A stretch of 43,148 nucleotides of DNA from an uncultured Rhodospirillaceae bacterium (lineage in GTDB: Bacteria; Pseudomonadota; Alphaproteobacteria; MPNO01; UBA2964), in contig CAYZDH010000002.1 in assembly GCA_964477025.1 (NCBI GenBank), forward strand, positions 1 through 43,148. The letters are read 5' to 3'. Positions 3,447-33,621 of the stretch are shown in pieces. The notes under the pieces were generated by a model. It searched no databases, had not been told where the DNA came from, and saw only the letters and a list, made by a program, of their open reading frames with translations. How positions within the stretch are numbered: position 1 is the first letter of the stretch; each line of letters opens with the position of its first letter. The position numbers and the translations under genes are program-made.

Positions 3447-4415
3447 CTATTTTAGGCCAAGTTCTTTATATGCGCGTAAGGCACCGGGGTGCATTTTAAT
3501 TCCAGCATTTTTGAAATTAGCCATGCCCGGGGTTGGGTTCCAAGACTTATAGACCGTCTTCATATATTTTCTTGTTGAAGCCTTATAAGTGTATTTAATA
3601 ATTTTATAAATAACATCATCCGGAACACTTGCACGGGCCATGATGGTGCTGGGGACGCCATAAGATAGCGCATCTCCAACGACATTTTTTCCATAGGCAC
3701 TGCCTTTTATCACAAACGGTGCGAAGGCGGGATTTTTGCCCATAACGGCCTTAAGTTCTGACTTTTGTAGTGGAATAAGACGTAGCTTACGGGTTGCAGC
3801 TAAGGCAGTCACAACAGGAACAGGTACCGCTGAGGAAACCGCAAATGCATCAATATTACCATCACGCAAAGCATTACCAGCGGCACTAAAACCAAGGTAC
3901 TGTGCTTTGACATTATTGCGGACGCCAACAGTACGAAGTACGAGATCTGCGTTAGCCGCAGTTCCACTGCCAGCTTTGGCTAAAGAAACCCGTTTGCCTT
4001 TTAAATCTGCAAAGCTAGTGATGTTATGCTTTGCCAGAGTTACCCAATGAATCGGAGAAATTGTTAACGACATAAGTGCGCGAACATTTGTGATCGGTTT
4101 CTTACCTTTGAATTTTCCGGTTGCCGTAACAGCATTATAAACAGCACCAAGATTAGCCAAACCAAGGTCGATTCCGCCCTTTTTTTTGCCCAAAATACGC
4201 ATATTGGTGGTTGATCCAGCAGTCGTTCGTGTTGAGAGGTTAATTCCTTTTACGTCACGAGTAATCGCGGTTGATAGCCCACCGCCCATTAGGAAATAAC
4301 TACCACCTGGCGAACTAGTGCCAATAACAAAATTTTGTGCATTCACAGCGGTACTAAGAAGACCTAGTGCTCCTACACTTACGCAAATTGTATAAAGTTT
4401 TTTATTCATTTTCAT
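3447..4415 (-). CDS. TRAP transporter solute-binding protein, TAXI family
   Basis: 322 aa with the signal peptide MKMNKKLYTICVSVGALGLLSTAVNA and a GTSSPGGSYFLMGGGL motif typical of TAXI receptors. It sits directly downstream of a fused TRAP permease. Confidence 0.85.
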   Translation of the reverse strand: MKMNKKLYTICVSVGALGLLSTAVNAQNFVIGTSSPGGSYFLMGGGLSTAITRDVKGINLSTRTTAGSTTNMRILGKKKGGIDLGLANLGAVYNAVTATGKFKGKKPITNVRALMSLTISPIHWVTLAKHNITSFADLKGKRVSLAKAGSGTAANADLVLRTVGVRNNVKAQYLGFSAAGNALRDGNIDAFAVSSAVPVPVVTALAATRKLRLIPLQKSELKAVMGKNPAFAPFVIKGSAYGKNVVGDALSYGVPSTIMARASVPDDVIYKIIKYTYKASTRKYMKTVYKSWNPTPGMANFKNAGIKMHPGALRAYKELGLK

Positions 4416-4502
4416 ATTTTTTCTCCTTTTTTACGACCTGTTTTGGCCGCAAAATGTTGCCATCCCCCATTAAACAAATTTAATATTTTGAGCTCAGGAG
4501 AT

Positions 4503-6404
4503 TTAAAGCTCAGGTATTTTATTGTTTTTATTACGCTTCTCTTGGCGGATTTGCCAAATCCAGAAACAGACAAAAACTATTAGTGGCAAAACTGCAAAGA
4601 GGCCATGTACTAGAACTAAGCTGATCCCAATACAAATTGACAAAAACCGCATTTTTTTACTTAAATCAGTGTAAAAAAATCCTTCTATTCCAGCCGAAAG
4701 GGAGAGCCCACCAAGGGCCAGTGTCACCACGGTGAGAAAAACATTTATTGCGCCGCCCTCCAGCAGCAGACCCGGCTGGTATACAAACAATACCGGCAAA
4801 TAAAAGATCGCCATAGCCTTTACCATGGCAATATTGCATACCGGCCATAGTCGTTCTTTAGAGATCCCAGCTGCCATGTAGGCTGCCAACGCGACCGGCG
4901 GGGTAACATTCGATGCTTGTCCCCACCACAAAACCAGCAAATGGGCTGCCATAATTGGTATTCCGAGTTGGATGAGTGCTGGCGCTGCCAAGGTTGCCAG
5001 AATGACGTATGCTGGAATTACCGAAAGTCCCATCCCAAGTATGTAGCCAATGATGAAAATAAACATCACCGTGAAGGCGAGGTTACTCTGCGCTAAATCA
5101 ATAATAAGCCCGGTGACCCGTATGCCTGTACCTGGCAAAAGAACGGCGCCCGCGATAATGGAAACTGGCCCTGCAACTGCAATAATTGGCAGGGACTCTT
5201 TGGCCCCTTCTGCCAGAGCTTGAATAATTTTCCGTGGCCCCATTTTTTTATCGGTAAACCAGCTGGCGACTATCACACTGATGATCGCCAACAGACCAAC
5301 CCGACTAAGAGAATAGTCCATATAAACTAAAATGATGACTACAAAGATGGGAAGTAGATAAACCCACCCTTTTTTGAAGGTTCCAATGAAGGGCGGGCAA
5401 TCTGATGGAGGTAATCCCTTTAGGTTGTTTCGTCGTGCATAAAAATGGACCTGGAGATAGACATTAAGAAAATAGAGTAGAGCAGGGATGGTGGCGTAGA
5501 GAACAATTTGGCCATAGGAGAATCCGGTCAAGGCCACCATTATAAAAGCAGACGCCCCCATAACAGGCGGCATGACGGTTCCACCTGTTGAAGCGGCGGC
5601 TTCAATGCCGCCGGCGACCGCTGGCCGGTATCCAGTCCGGATCATCATAGGAATCGTAATATTGCCGGTTATTGCAACATTAGCTGATGCAGAGCCGGAG
5701 ATGCTTGCGGTAATGAAACTGGAACCCACAGCTGCCTTGGCACCGCCTCCCGCTCTTGTCCCAAGAAAGGAAAGGCACATGTCGGTAAAAAATTCGGATG
5801 CGCCCGAGCGGATAAGGAATACTCCAAACACCAAGAACAAAAATAAATTAGATGCTAATACATAGGTAATTGAGCCATAAAGCCCATCGGTCTGAGCATA
5901 AAGCGACGTGGCTATTTCTCTCATATTAAAGCCGCCATGCGTAAATGGCCAAGGGACGCTGGCTCCAAAATAGAGAAAAGCAAGAAATGCTCCAGAGATG
6001 ATTGCCATGGCAAGCCCTAAAGCCCGACGGCCTGCTTCGATTACCCCCAGGATCATTATCCAGCCCATTACCATATCAAAATTGCCGATATCGAAACCTT
6101 CATTTTCAGCAAAAATCAGATAATGTTCGTTAAAACGATAGGTAGCGATTGTTACAGCTACAAAAAAAACAACATCAAAAAGCCTTGCGGGAAGAGAGTT
6201 TGCGAGTGGAAAATAACAAATGGCAAGAGCTACACCAACGAATATAAAAAGGCTGCGATCGAGTGCGGGGCTAAAGGTTCCAAAAGCCCCGACGTACATA
6301 AAATAGAGAGTTGTCGTAAGGCCTATTAAAAAACCAAGCTTGTTCCAATTTCCGCAAAACTGATCTGCCGAAATAACCTGTGCATTAACTGGCTCGTTAG
6401 TCAT
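4503..6404 (-). CDS. TRAP transporter fused small/large permease (TAXI-associated type)
   Basis: 633-aa polytopic membrane protein. Its size and hydrophobic pattern match fused 4TM+12TM TRAP permeases, and it is adjacent to the TAXI binding protein. Confidence 0.85.
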   Translation of the reverse strand: MTNEPVNAQVISADQFCGNWNKLGFLIGLTTTLYFMYVGAFGTFSPALDRSLFIFVGVALAICYFPLANSLPARLFDVVFFVAVTIATYRFNEHYLIFAENEGFDIGNFDMVMGWIMILGVIEAGRRALGLAMAIISGAFLAFLYFGASVPWPFTHGGFNMREIATSLYAQTDGLYGSITYVLASNLFLFLVFGVFLIRSGASEFFTDMCLSFLGTRAGGGAKAAVGSSFITASISGSASANVAITGNITIPMMIRTGYRPAVAGGIEAAASTGGTVMPPVMGASAFIMVALTGFSYGQIVLYATIPALLYFLNVYLQVHFYARRNNLKGLPPSDCPPFIGTFKKGWVYLLPIFVVIILVYMDYSLSRVGLLAIISVIVASWFTDKKMGPRKIIQALAEGAKESLPIIAVAGPVSIIAGAVLLPGTGIRVTGLIIDLAQSNLAFTVMFIFIIGYILGMGLSVIPAYVILATLAAPALIQLGIPIMAAHLLVLWWGQASNVTPPVALAAYMAAGISKERLWPVCNIAMVKAMAIFYLPVLFVYQPGLLLEGGAINVFLTVVTLALGGLSLSAGIEGFFYTDLSKKMRFLSICIGISLVLVHGLFAVLPLIVFVCFWIWQIRQEKRNKNNKIPEL

Positions 6405-23964: not shown

Positions 23965-25323
23965 ATGGCTCAGGACTTCCTTTCATTTATTGAAAAGATT
24001 AAGTCAGAGAGACCTGACGAATTTGTGTCAGTTTCTGATAAAATCGACCCAGCACATTCAATTACTGCAACCGTTGTTAAGACAGAAGAAGAGGCCCGTA
24101 AACGGCCAGTTTTTGTTTTTGAGAATGTCAAGGGAACTGACTTTAAGGTTATGACCAATCTCCACGCTAGCCGACATCGTCTTGGTTTAGCGATGGGGGT
24201 TGGGCCTCGAGAAATGCAAAAACGATTTCTTGATGCCATGGAGAACCCCATTCCCCCTAAGGAGATAAATACTGGACCCTGCAAGGATATAATAATTAAA
24301 GGGAACGATATCGATATGCGGGCCCTGCCCCAAATTGTGCATCATGGGGACGACGGAGGCCCTTACATCACCGCAGCTATTTCATTCGCAAAAGATCCGG
24401 AAACCGGTATTTATAACTGTGCATATAACCGGCTCATGATTACCGGCAAAGACACGACGTCAATTCATCTGACACTGGGTAAGCAGCTGTGGGAATTCCA
24501 TAAGATGGCGGAAGCAAAGGGAGAACCATTACCTGTTGCGTTTGCTATAGGGGTGCATCCGGCAATCGCTTTGGGCGCGTTGTCTATTGGCTCTGTTGAT
24601 GAGGATGAGACGCATATTATGGGTGGGCTCTTTGAAGAACCCCTTGAAATGGTTCCTTGCGAGACCATTGATTTATCTGTTCCCGCTCACGCCGAGCTGG
24701 TTATTGAAGCGGAAATTATGCCTAATGAGTCGGTAGAAGAGGGACCGTTCGGTGAGTTTACCGGGTACAGTTTAGGCGCCCGAGAACGGGAAGTGGTCAA
24801 GGTAAAGGCGATAACTCACCGAAAGGGTGCATATTTTTATGACATGAATGTCGGCCATCTGGATCACATGTTGCTCTCGACAATCCCAATGGAGGCCAAT
24901 CTGTTTCGGGCGGTGAGAACAATGGTGCCCTCCGTAAGGGCAGTTCGTGTGCCTAGCCCCTTCACCTGCTTTGTTTCAATTGAGCAGCGGCTAAAGGGTC
25001 AAGGGAAGAATGCTATAATGGCTGTGTTTGGAGCGGATCTTTACATTAAGCGTGTCGTAGTTGTAGATCATGATGTCGATATTTATGATAATGGCCGAGT
25101 TAACTGGGCTATGGCGACAAGAAGTCAACCAGATCGTGATATCGTTGTTATAAGCAACGCTCGTGGTTCTGATCTTGACCCATCTACTGCCGGAGATGAT
25201 GGCTTCACCTCAAAATGGGGTGTCGATGCAACGGCGAAGCCACTGCTAAGTGAATTCACGCCTCGTCATAATTTTCCAGCAAATGTTTGGGATGCGGTCG
25301 ACGTTAAGTCAATTTTGTCGTGA
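23965..25323 (+). CDS. UbiD-family (prenylated-FMN-dependent) aromatic acid decarboxylase/carboxylase
   Basis: 452 aa containing the family motif EGPFGEFTGY together with ...AYNRLMITGKDTTSIHL... and ...VVVVDHDVDI... No ubiX-like gene is present in the window. Confidence 0.88.
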   Translation: MAQDFLSFIEKIKSERPDEFVSVSDKIDPAHSITATVVKTEEEARKRPVFVFENVKGTDFKVMTNLHASRHRLGLAMGVGPREMQKRFLDAMENPIPPKEINTGPCKDIIIKGNDIDMRALPQIVHHGDDGGPYITAAISFAKDPETGIYNCAYNRLMITGKDTTSIHLTLGKQLWEFHKMAEAKGEPLPVAFAIGVHPAIALGALSIGSVDEDETHIMGGLFEEPLEMVPCETIDLSVPAHAELVIEAEIMPNESVEEGPFGEFTGYSLGAREREVVKVKAITHRKGAYFYDMNVGHLDHMLLSTIPMEANLFRAVRTMVPSVRAVRVPSPFTCFVSIEQRLKGQGKNAIMAVFGADLYIKRVVVVDHDVDIYDNGRVNWAMATRSQPDRDIVVISNARGSDLDPSTAGDDGFTSKWGVDATAKPLLSEFTPRHNFPANVWDAVDVKSILS

Positions 25324-28877: not shown

Positions 28878-30179
28878 GTGTATAGGAAACGATTAAAGTT
28901 ACTTCTTTGCGTTTTAATGGGCGTGGCCTTTTCGATAACAGGGGGCGGGAATACATCCGAGGCAGGTCCTAACTTTAAAGGTAAGAGGGTTCAGTTGATT
29001 ATTGCGTCCAGTCCCGGCGGTGGAACTGACAGGATAGGACGCCTTTTATCTTCATATATGGAGAAAATTTTAGAGGGTAATCCAACTATTGTTATAAAAA
29101 ACATGGGGTCCGGTGGAGGAAAAATAAGGGCGGCGAATTACCTGATGAAAAAGGCAAAACCCGACGGCCTGACCTTTATGCAAAGTGATACGACCGTCGT
29201 TTCGCCAACCACGTTAAGGCGTAAATCGGCGAGATACGACCCCACCAAATTTGAATTTATTGGTTCACTTAACCGTGGCGGAAGCATCTTTTTTATCAAT
29301 AAAAAAGCGCATAAGCGATTGTTGGATAAGTCTAAGAAACCTGTCATCGTTGCCGCTATATCCGGAACCCGTAATTGGCAGGCCATTCCGCTCTGGGGCG
29401 CTGAGTTTCTTGGCTGGAATGTTCGATGGATCCCTGGTTATCGTGGTGTCGGCCAGATGAGCAAGGCTCTCCGTCAGGGTGAGATTGATATGTTTGCAAC
29501 AAACAATGCATTCACAATCAAGCAGCTTCAAGACGATGGGGTTATAAAGCTGATTTCTCAAGTAGGGCAGGTTCTTGGCGGAAAGATATCGCGGAGGCTT
29601 TCATATAAAGACGTTCCTGTTTTTACCGAGATGCTGGAAAGTTCCGGAAAGAAAAAAATTCCTCTACTTGCTATGCAGGGGTACAGTTCGCTGACTACCC
29701 CATCTCAGGTGGACAAGTGGATGGGGATGCCGCCTGGGACTCCAAAAAGCTACTTGAAGGCTTTTCGTGAGGCTTACAAGTCGTCAGTTAACGATCCTGC
29801 TTTCTTGAAAATTGCGCGCAAACAATTTAGCAAGGAGATCAACTACATTGACGGGCAGACGGTTGCCAAGCTTGTCGCCGCGGTTCATAGAGCTCCCACT
29901 GAGGCCGTTGATTATGCGGAAGAGTTAAAGCAGAAATATGGTCTGACGGCGTTTAAGAACAAAGTTTATGTTTTTAAAGGTAAAATAACGAAGATAAAGA
30001 AAAAAGGTAAAAGCCTTAAATTTAAAGGTGGTGGCAAGAAGGGTAAGTTAAAGGTAGGGAAAAAGACCAAAATTAAAATCGGCGGAAAAACAGCTAAACG
30101 TAAAATGCTAAAAGTGGGTATGAGCTGTACCTTCAAGACAAAAGGCATCAAAAAAGCGACAAAGATCGACTGTAAATAG
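28878..30179 (+). CDS. TctC/Bug-family periplasmic binding protein of a tripartite tricarboxylate transporter, with a ~66-aa poly-Lys C-terminal module
   Basis: GTG start with a signal peptide. The core aligns by eye with TctC (IIASSPGGGTDRIGR, KNMGSGGG, KPDGLT, IPGYRG..Q...AL..GEIDM, MPPGTP). The tail is described in the findings. Confidence 0.8.
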   Translation: MYRKRLKLLLCVLMGVAFSITGGGNTSEAGPNFKGKRVQLIIASSPGGGTDRIGRLLSSYMEKILEGNPTIVIKNMGSGGGKIRAANYLMKKAKPDGLTFMQSDTTVVSPTTLRRKSARYDPTKFEFIGSLNRGGSIFFINKKAHKRLLDKSKKPVIVAAISGTRNWQAIPLWGAEFLGWNVRWIPGYRGVGQMSKALRQGEIDMFATNNAFTIKQLQDDGVIKLISQVGQVLGGKISRRLSYKDVPVFTEMLESSGKKKIPLLAMQGYSSLTTPSQVDKWMGMPPGTPKSYLKAFREAYKSSVNDPAFLKIARKQFSKEINYIDGQTVAKLVAAVHRAPTEAVDYAEELKQKYGLTAFKNKVYVFKGKITKIKKKGKSLKFKGGGKKGKLKVGKKTKIKIGGKTAKRKMLKVGMSCTFKTKGIKKATKIDCK

Positions 30180-32322: not shown

Positions 32323-33621
32323 ATGCAGACAATCAAATATGTTCTTTGTTTGGGACTATTTTCATTATTTCTTTTTAATTCCAAAGGCAGCTTCGCCGAG
32401 GCGCAAAGTTTAAAAAGCTTTTATAAAGGAAAAACCCTAACAGTTATGATTGGGTATGGTGCGGGCGGTGGATATGACATGTATTCCCGGACACTTGCTC
32501 GTTTTATTTCTAAACATATCCCTGGGAACCCTAAAGTCGTCGGTAAAAATATGCCGGGTGCTGGCTCCTTAAAGCTTGCTAACTGGATGTACTCAGTTGC
32601 CCCTAAAAATGGAACTGTTTTTGCGACTATAGCGCGTGGTGCGCCGGTGCATTCTCTTTTAGGTGGAAAGGGAGCACGTTTCGATGCTACCAAATTTAAT
32701 TGGCTTGGTAGTATGAATAACGAAGTTAGTGTTTGCGCTACAACCTTTAGGGCCCCTGCTAAAACTTTTGCGGATCTCCAGAAAAATGAAACTATAATCG
32801 GGGGCGGGGGAAAAAGCTCTGATAACGAAGTTTTTGCTATGTTTGTTCAAAACCTCCTCGGTGCAAAGTTTAAGTTAATATCTGGCTACCCGGGAATGAA
32901 GGTTATGTTCTTGGCTATGCAGCGCGGTGAAATTGACGGCGTGTGTGGATGGAGTTGGACTGGTGTAAAAAAACAAAAAGTGGCTGTAGATTGGTACAAT
33001 GCAAATAAATTGAATGTTGTGCTTCAATTCGCACTACAAAAACACCCAGAATAGCCAAAAGTCCCTTTAATCACTGATTTTGCAAAAACGGCAAGCGAGA
33101 AAGCTCAAATGGAGCTGATCTTTTCCAGGCAGACTATGGGTCGTCCTTATCTTTTTCCTCCGGGAGTAAAGCGGGAACGTGTGGAAATGATGCGGAAGGC
33201 ATTCATTGCAACTATGAAGGATCCAAATTTTAACGCTTTTGCTAAGCGAACTAAGATGGAAGTTAATTACGTTTCGGGCAGCGATGTTCAAATGTTGGTT
33301 AATAGAGTTTTGAACACGCCCAAAGAAACGGTGATGGCGGCAATATCAAACACTAGACACCGAGGAAAAATTGAGAAAGTAAAACTTAATTACGTAAAGG
33401 CTACCGGGATTGTCGTTGGAGTAAAAAAGAAAGGGCGGAAGCTCGTACTTAAAGTTAACGGTAAGAAAGTTAAAACAAAGGTCTCTGGTAAAAGGAGTAA
33501 GGTCTTAGTTAATGGGAAAAAGGTTAAAAGAGGGGCAGTTAAGAACGGCATGCGTTGTGAGTTGACTTGGCTTGGGTCTGGAACGGAGTCAAAAAAGGTT
33601 GATTGTCAAACCTCTAAATAG
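32323..33621 (+). pseudogene. second TctC/Bug-family binding protein gene, interrupted by a single in-frame TAG (33052-33054); same poly-Lys C-terminal module
   Basis: ORFs 32323..33054 and 33109..33621 are in the same frame. Translation reads ...LQKHPE*PKVPLITDFAKT..., which is continuous with the TctC alignment of the paralogue (..RRLSYKDVPVFTEM..). There are no other disruptions. Confidence 0.65.

Follow-up and report, generated by a model that had tools for sequence, protein, structure and literature searches.

A C-terminal OB-type barrel on TctC-type binding proteins of an alphaproteobacterium and its possible role as a polycationic tether

Why does a periplasmic binding protein end in a dense array of lysines? 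This question is raised by the window analyzed here, a whole stretch of 43,148 nucleotides from an uncultured Rhodospirillaceae bacterium (contig CAYZDH010000002.1, assembly GCA_964477025.1), which contains two genes for TctC-type binding proteins of tripartite tricarboxylate transporter (TTT) systems, hereafter SBP1 and SBP2 (coordinates of all features are given in Table 1). The C-terminal tails of both proteins and of their relatives were compared using a 30-sequence tail alignment and its profile (A1). Our answer concerns, with high probability, an autonomous domain of about 70 residues, a five-stranded barrel of the oligonucleotide/oligosaccharide-binding (OB) type and of the CusF/DUF5666 kind, which is joined by a short linker to a TctC-type flytrap core. 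The complete reading, in which this domain is stapled by a disulfide and acts in the SBP1 clade as an electrostatic tether, is given a probability of about 0.4.

The last 66 residues of SBP1 comprised 26 Lys, 1 Arg, 1 Asp, 0 Glu, 11 Gly, and 2 Cys located 15 residues apart, and our recount agreed exactly with the tail and with the Lys, Arg, and acidic residue counts quoted in the first-pass annotation. The share of lysine was 39% in the tail versus 11% elsewhere in the protein. The residues quoted from position 29979 onward were correct, but the start was not, as the A1 alignment and the models place the beginning of the folded domain about 5-7 residues upstream, near 29958-29964. The longest run of A in either tail was 6 nt and the lysine codons of tail 1 were mixed (19 AAA and 9 AAG); therefore, slippage is not an issue. 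Between tail 1 and its orthologues in two marine metagenome-assembled genomes (MAGs), pN was 0.06 and pS about 0.7, and the resulting ratio of nonsynonymous to synonymous change (dN/dS) of approximately 0.03-0.04 indicates strong purifying selection, with a constraint equal to that of the flytrap core. The nearest genomes by the full SBP1 protein were marine alphaproteobacterial MAGs, one of them from an uncultured Rhodospirillaceae bacterium at 85% identity. Tails 1 and 2 were 42% identical in protein and only 51% identical in DNA over 66 aligned codons, and are therefore old paralogues.

Homopolymer slippage or a frameshift was rejected on account of the short A-runs, the mixed codons, and the low dN/dS, and also because the orthologues ending in poly-lysine show no barrel in another frame; a recent duplication of the tails was rejected by their low nucleotide identity. 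The first description of the tail as neither a slippage artefact nor a fresh duplication thus holds. A reading of the tail as an artefact, either a mistranslated or frameshifted A-rich low-complexity stretch or an untranslated extension, could point to the SBP2 copy of the window, which lies downstream of an in-frame TAG, and to certain metagenomic representatives that appear chimeric. It is, however, contradicted by A-runs of no more than 6 nt, by a reading frame kept at 64-99% identity between independent assemblies, by a dN/dS of about 0.03, by confident structure prediction, and by the intact second copy in relatives. We regard it as having virtually no chance of being correct, and for copy 1 it is already refuted. 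To judge from the sequence, the SBP1 tail is real and translated.

Modelled alone with A1, the tail gave a confident AlphaFold structure of five strands (predicted local distance difference test, pLDDT, 89.3; predicted template modelling score, pTM, 0.73), and the full-length model showed the same strands, which supports the proposed beta structure as opposed to disorder. A Foldseek search with the tail model returned CusF first (2vb2, 3e6z, 1zeq, and 2qcp; TM score 0.72-0.74, root-mean-square deviation 2.4-2.6 Å, E ~2e-3), followed by generic OB folds (IF1, RPA, and the OB domains of proteasomal ATPases) and an S-layer self-assembly domain (9fs9, TM 0.71). At the sequence level, neither window tail matched any Pfam model at E up to 10, including CusF_Ec, DUF5666, and DUF1344; the 30 A1 tails gave no match to CusF_Ec at E<=1 and none to DUF5666; and searches of NCBIfam and of PDB sequences (the latter with the 30-sequence profile) returned nothing significant. 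Weak PDB sequence matches to the fragilysin pro-domain and Sac7d (E ~0.8) were treated as chance. The tail had initially not been recognized as a named domain. No Pfam, NCBIfam, or PDB sequence model indeed detects it, but its fold, the CusF/OB-type barrel, is a known one.

Multi-repeat proteins matched by the tail profile are assigned by Pfam to DUF5666, CusF_Ec, or DUF1344. Comparison of A1 by hhalign with the repeats of DUF5666/CusF_Ec-positive proteins reached a probability of 97.8% (E = 8e-13, 69 columns), a result that is partly circular because these repeats were picked with the A1 profile. A more independent comparison with the repeats of P0161, which is strongly DUF5666-positive and was cut by periodicity alone, gave 93.3% (E = 3e-7, 38 columns). 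These values support relatedness to DUF5666-type repeats at the superfamily level, not family membership. We conclude that the tail belongs to the CusF/DUF5666 small-barrel superfamily, as a divergent and uncurated member.

Like CusF (PF11604, CusF_Ec), a periplasmic Cu(I)/Ag(I) chaperone, the tail is a small periplasmic five-stranded OB-type barrel. CusF binds Cu(I)/Ag(I) by a His/Met/Met/Trp site on strands 2-3. The tail shares only 12-13% sequence identity with it, is not matched by the Pfam CusF_Ec model, and lacks the conserved His/Met/Met/Trp site; its own distinguishing features are a conserved pair of Cys and the fusion to a binding protein of a transporter. In columns 20-45 of 172 non-redundant domains, the conserved residues were G26, V33, S34, S36, R37, T38, and G44, with no conserved His, Met, or Trp, and a CusF-type metal site in the strand 2-3 region was rejected for this reason. 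With DUF5666 (PF18914) and DUF1344 (PF07076), the tail shares the motif layout G-x-I/V-x-x-V ... V-T/S-x-x-T-x-I ... G ... L-K-x-G-M-x-V/C-x-x-x-Y. The tail family differs from them by its own signature (GR, VSGSRT, R49, K53, and the C58/C74 pair) and by its own context at the TctC C-terminus. We know of no function for DUF5666.

The host protein was only weakly and partially matched by the Pfam TctC model (PF03401; 33.5 bits against a cutoff of 27, E = 4e-8, residues 265-334), and SBP1 therefore represents a divergent TctC subfamily. Its full-length AlphaFold model (pLDDT 91.4, pTM 0.79) adopted the two-lobe Venus-flytrap fold, and the top 17 Foldseek matches in the PDB were all TTT binding proteins (E 3e-16 to 4e-12). 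These matches (TphC, TBP, BugD, BugE, Bug27, TctC, MatC, and AdpC) comprise 288-302 residues each and none has an extra domain, in agreement with the expectation that canonical TctC/Bug proteins lack such an extension. As in the TctC/Bug proteins (PF03401; BugD 2f5x, BugE 2dvz, Bug27 2qpq, TphC 7ndr, AdpC 5oei, and MatC 6hke), the first ~360 residues of SBP1, signal peptide and core, fold as a flytrap, and the gene adjoins tctA-tctB. The solved members found all end after the flytrap, whereas SBP1 adds the ~70-residue barrel after the last flytrap helix and so departs from the canonical architecture of a signal peptide and flytrap only, with about 300 mature residues.

The barrel extends far beyond the window. 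Homologues of SBP1 at just 35-41% identity aligned on through the tail, and many of their tails were not lysine-rich; the shared pattern was V..V..GGR.l.F...G....kVS(G/S)SRTkV.I.GkkakR..LK.GM.C.I.Y.G...A..I.C. When the A1 profile was searched against 1.84 billion cluster representatives, 508 representatives matched at E<=1e-3 and 253 at E<=1e-10. Among the best 150 of the 508, to which architecture classes were assigned, 68 had a recognizable TctC core upstream of the tail, 22 consisted of the tail alone, 49 had a short N-terminal stretch and mostly resembled C-terminal fragments, about 8 were small proteins composed of a signal peptide and barrel, and 5 were multi-repeat proteins. A word-indexed search with the tail profile additionally recovered 19 short proteins, among them the P0285 family. 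The barrel was carried by 86 of the 120 best SBP2 homologues and occurred as two tandem copies in P0100, P0121, P0122, and P0170, and its C-terminal end lay within 1 residue of the protein end in 153 of 184 domains. A C-terminal sorting signal of the type IX secretion system kind was dropped as an interpretation, as the first tandem copy is internal and stand-alone secreted versions exist.

The most conserved columns across the 172 non-redundant domains were G17, R18, G26, V33, S34, S36, R37, T38, G44, R49, K53, G55, M56, C58, Y62, A69, and C74. The profile-detected family, its near-invariant motif columns, and the dN/dS of about 0.03-0.04 bear out the first-pass view of the tail as a conserved protein module. 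That view had limited the module to two proteins, and this part must be revised, since 508 representatives and most of the best SBP2 homologues mark it as a widespread accessory domain. The family is conserved but uncurated. In the sequences examined, it occurs for the most part on TTT binding proteins, as one barrel or as tandem copies, and it also exists as a small secreted protein. The SBP1 barrel itself retained 16 of the 20 most conserved family columns, including G17, G26, V33, T38, G44, R49, K53, G55-M56-x-C58, A69, and C74; R18, S36, and R37 were replaced by Lys and S34 was lost. With a net charge of +28 in 73 residues, it falls within the top 1% of the family by charge.

Some family members have unusual architectures. 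P0137 (114 aa) consists of a signal peptide, the initial ~12 residues of a TctC core, and the barrel directly after them, as if the flytrap had been lost by a natural deletion and only a secreted barrel remained. In P0152, P0160, P0194, P0240, and P0259, the barrel was joined to SecY-like, glycosyltransferase-like, or alcohol-dehydrogenase-like N-terminal pieces of unrelated cytoplasmic or membrane proteins, and these are probably chimeric assemblies.

The conservation of the two cysteines, first noticed in the window copies, extends to the family as a whole, in which columns C58 and C74 are almost or entirely invariant (Table 1) and 178 of 184 barrel domains contain exactly two Cys. By conservation periodicity, M56, C58, I60, and Y62 share one face of strand 4, and I72 and C74 lie on the same face of strand 5, a strand register compatible with a cross-strand disulfide. 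An N-terminal signal peptide is visible in the SBP1 sequence. The Cys pair most likely forms a disulfide in the periplasm, fastening the C-terminal strand to the rest of the barrel.

The second copy of the window retained G17-R18, V33-S34-G35, R37, G44, R49, K53, and G55-M56-x-C58...C74 at a net charge of +19, and is a canonical version of the family. The first-pass annotation had reported a homologous tail at 33406..33618; its sequence, with Cys 16 residues apart, was as quoted, but the gene is not intact, as an in-frame TAG divides it into open reading frames (ORFs) of 243 aa and 170 aa. As sequenced, SBP2 thus does not yield a secreted binding protein of full length that carries the tail. 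The orthologue at locus L006 is intact (429 aa) with TTA (Leu) at the TAG codon, and P0288 (432 aa, 98% identical to SBP2) also has Leu at this position. The TAG could be due to a pseudogene, a strain variant, or a sequencing error, and it warrants checking before SBP2 is called functional.

The barrel is linked to TTT systems in general, not to the fused form of their membrane component. Barrel-bearing genes were found beside fused TctAB in the window and at L001, L005-L008, and L028, and beside separate tctA and tctB genes at L017, L029, and L030; at L002, a barrel-bearing gene had no tctA within 8 kb. Barrel-less SBP1 orthologues (73-75% identical) adjoined TctAB fusions 75-78% identical to that of the window, and so the presence of the barrel does not follow that of the fusion. 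The co-occurrence with TctA-TctB fusions raised in the first-pass annotation fails on both counts, and an obligatory coupling of the barrel to the fusion was rejected. Fused TctAB was the sole nearby tctA/tctB in 7 of 11 distinct barrel contexts, 4 of which are orthologous to the window and not independent. Four barrel-bearing tctC genes occurred within 13 kb at L030 (4517-13237), beside a canonical tctC-tctA-tctB set and a UbiD gene. In addition, P0285, a secreted stand-alone barrel of 101 aa with four Cys (L017 7001-7306; also L018-L021), has its gene flanked by a tctB-like gene on one side and by a tctC gene with a barrel on the other, directly downstream of tctA. Other stand-alone barrels were located outside tct operons.

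In the SBP1 clade, the lysine coat of the barrel has a counterpart in a much simpler element. Thirty barrel-less SBP1 orthologues ended in a short Lys/Arg-rich tract with 7-13 Lys/Arg in the last 16 residues, and the closest of them carried 10-14 basic residues in a poly-Lys/Arg tract (for example, ...AFKKKRKKKKKKKAKGS, ...KYGLAAFKKKRKKKKKKKAKGS, and KKKRKKKKKKKAKGS); such tracts were found at loci L009-L013 (e.g., L010 10948-11023) and in proteins P0011-P0036. In the GC-richer MAGs, the poly-lysine tract was encoded mostly by AAG codons and was followed by ~70 bp with a GC hairpin and then by tctAB, a distance too short for a barrel to be hidden in another frame. On a neighbour-joining tree of the cores, the barrel and poly-lysine forms interleaved, with P0008 grouping with P0011 and P0015, and P0009 and P0010 placed inside a poly-lysine group, which implies at least three switches between the two forms. 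These results favor selection for a cationic C-terminus in the SBP1 clade. As the poly-lysine tract and the lysine-coated barrel are interchangeable, selection for dense positive charge at the C-terminus is the best explanation in this clade, and a tether to the envelope becomes plausible.

The proposed mechanism is as follows. In the SBP1 clade, part of the polar signature of the family has been overwritten by Lys, with about half of the variable columns being Lys or Arg, and the barrel would act as a compact polycationic anchor that holds the binding protein at anionic periplasmic surfaces. Candidate surfaces are the outer leaflet of the inner membrane and the periplasmic face of TctAB. Anchoring would raise the local concentration of the binding protein near the transporter and thereby its encounter rate with it, and close orthologues would achieve the same outcome by the bare poly-Lys/Arg tract. 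A parallel, by functional analogy only, is offered by substrate-binding proteins that a lipid anchor or another tether holds at the membrane, and by polybasic tails that target proteins to membranes, for example the C-terminus of K-Ras. The proposed outcome is likewise retention at an anionic membrane and a faster encounter with a membrane partner; SBP1 differs in having no lipobox or lipid modification by its sequence, and its cationic element is a folded barrel or a poly-lysine tract. We propose the electrostatic tether for the SBP1 clade tentatively, at somewhat less than even odds.

Several observations weigh against this tether. Positive charge was not conserved across the family, in which the barrel ranged from -7 to +28 and 16% of the non-redundant domains had a net charge of +2 or less. 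The charge density of the tail followed that of the core (Spearman 0.82, n = 59), as in P0170, where an acidic core (-12) is combined with an acidic tail (-12). The strongly cationic character first ascribed to the module is thus not a property of the module as such, and high positive charge wherever the element is present was found only within the SBP1 clade, not family-wide. The TAXI binding protein of the window has no tail, yet its isoelectric point (pI) is 10.4 and its net charge +34, against pI values of 5-6 for cytoplasmic proteins of this organism. A strongly basic character is therefore a trait of periplasmic binding proteins in this lineage, and part of the lysine coat may reflect such a lineage-wide trend of periplasmic proteins instead of an adaptation specific to the tail. 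Poly-lysine tracts were absent from the 34 barrel-less members of the SBP2 clade among the 120 best homologues. Moreover, by our own reasoning electrostatic tethering would be weak at seawater ionic strength.

The polar signature of the wider family, kept even in acidic variants, implies an older and more specific role. An ancestral, charge-independent function may have been a docking or binding site formed by R18, S34-x-S36-R37-T38, R49, and K53. Extended to SBP1, this gives a specific docking or oligomerisation module, in which the polar patch (R18, S34, S36, R37, T38, R49, and K53) binds TctA/TctB, another barrel, or a sensor, and the lysine coat is incidental. Besides the signature retained in acidic variants, the tandem barrels and the separate barrel gene beside a barrel-bearing tctC gene in a tct operon fit barrel-barrel or barrel-transporter contacts, the S-layer self-assembly domain is among the structural matches, and tail charge follows core charge. 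On the other hand, tail 1 has lost part of the polar signature, and the SBP1 clade has exchanged the barrel for a featureless poly-lysine tract at least three times, which is hard to square with a stereospecific interface. Barrel-less orthologues work beside equally similar TctAB fusions, and certain stand-alone barrels lie outside tct operons. A docking module is thus judged unlikely as the explanation, though only somewhat less probable than the tether.

A stabilising or solubilising appendage without a dedicated partner, with the lysine coat and poly-lysine tract as products of a lineage-wide drive to basic periplasmic proteins, would explain why the binding-protein cores are already at +20 to +43, why the TAXI protein is so basic without a tail, and why tail and core charge are so closely correlated. 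It is less able to explain the mean charge density across the family, which was 0.200 per residue in the tail versus 0.057 in the core, about 3.5 times higher. The dN/dS of about 0.03 and the near-invariant motif residues argue for a specific constraint, and poly-lysine encoded by AAG in GC-richer genomes points to selection for C-terminal Lys itself; we therefore consider a mere appendage improbable. Less probable still is a CusF-like chaperone, in which the barrel would bind a metal ion or an anionic substrate and deliver this cargo to the transporter or flytrap. In its favor, no structure matches better than CusF, ligands for a soft metal could in principle be supplied by the conserved Met56, Cys58, and Cys74, and a carboxylate could be held by the conserved Arg, Ser, and Thr. 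However, the Pfam CusF_Ec model does not match the tails, and conserved His, Met, or Trp residues are missing from the strand 2-3 region. DUF5666-type repeats that lack cysteine often have Met56 as well, so it is probably a core residue, and the Cys pair is more simply explained as a periplasmic disulfide.

Among the other features of the window (Table 1), the membrane component was assigned from a strong Pfam match to TctA (E = 2e-116, residues 18-435) and a weak match to TctB (E = 6e-4, residues 538-647; 20.5 bits, under the cutoff of 29.1), and the same gene order, SBP1 followed by tctAB, was also present at L005-L008. The stem-loop between the two genes may stabilise the mRNA or act in attenuation, and so determine how much binding protein is made relative to permease; GC-rich hairpins were found at the equivalent position at L009-L012. 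Nearby genes were catabolic and encoded a UbiD decarboxylase, a CoA ligase, an MR/MLE enzyme, a glyoxalase-type protein, a flavoprotein, and a cupin. The UbiD-like ORF (23965..25323) overlapped the listed CoA-ligase ORF (GTG at 25250) by 74 nt (25250..25323), and the true start of the CoA ligase is probably further downstream than this GTG. Additionally, a TAXI-TRAP system was located upstream on the reverse strand (3447..6404), made up of a binding protein of the NMT1_3 type (322 aa) and a DctQM-like fusion protein (633 aa).

Table 1. Positions of the binding-protein genes, their C-terminal barrels, and associated features in the window
Feature	Position	Strand	Basis
SBP1, TctC-type periplasmic binding protein, 433 aa	28878..30179	+	ORF and translation; signal peptide, Venus-flytrap core, C-terminal barrel
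SBP1 C-terminal beta-barrel domain, residues 361-433	29958..30176	+	A1 alignment; five strands in AlphaFold; CusF as top Foldseek match
Cys417 codon, first Cys of the pair (family column C58)	30126..30128	+	Column 99% Cys in 172 non-redundant domains
Cys432 codon, second Cys of the pair, penultimate residue (family column C74)	30171..30173	+	Column 100% Cys in 172 non-redundant domains
Stem-loop without U-tract, between SBP1 stop and tctAB start codon	30202..30236	+	RNA fold -21.2 kcal/mol, z = -3.2
TctA-TctB fusion (TctAB), membrane component, 660 aa	30247..32229	+	Between SBP1 and SBP2 genes, 68 bp downstream of SBP1
SBP2, second TctC-type binding-protein gene, interrupted by a stop	32323..33621	+	ORFs 32323..33054 and 33109..33621 share a frame
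In-frame TAG inside SBP2	33052..33054	+	Leu at this codon in relatives
SBP2 C-terminal beta-barrel domain	33391..33609	+	hmmsearch with A1 profile against six-frame ORFs (independent E-value 4e-24); family-profile comparison

The TTT systems are among the least understood binding-protein-dependent uptake systems. Most TTT binding proteins have no assigned substrate according to the literature consulted, including passages of a 2018 review (PMC5812351), and the same passages describe TctAB fusions as rare and mention no extra domain of TctC. Full-text literature searches returned no paper on a C-terminal domain of TctC/Bug proteins and nothing relevant on DUF5666, on lysine-rich tails of periplasmic binding proteins, or on polybasic periplasmic tethers; they also returned no structure of TTT membrane components. 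The barrel on TTT binding proteins thus seems securely to be a new architecture and an uncurated family, not something categorically new. It defines a domain family missed by the curated libraries scanned, and annotation pipelines could mark the longer TctC proteins (~410-470 aa) as a separate architecture.

An extra domain on hundreds of binding-protein clusters, once even as its own gene in a tct operon, points to an unstudied step in how the binding protein finds or engages its transporter. The alternation of barrel and poly-lysine tract in close orthologues provides a natural experiment by which the tether idea is directly testable. More speculatively, and with appreciably less confidence than the tether in the SBP1 clade itself, such cationic appendages, whether a lysine-coated and disulfide-stapled barrel or a poly-Lys tract, could be a previously unrecognized way for marine Gram-negative Alphaproteobacteria to hold binding proteins at the anionic membrane beside a secondary transporter. 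If this is true, they would do without a covalent bond what lipid anchors do for binding proteins in Gram-positive bacteria, and the barrel family would count as a fourth, dedicated component in many TTT systems.

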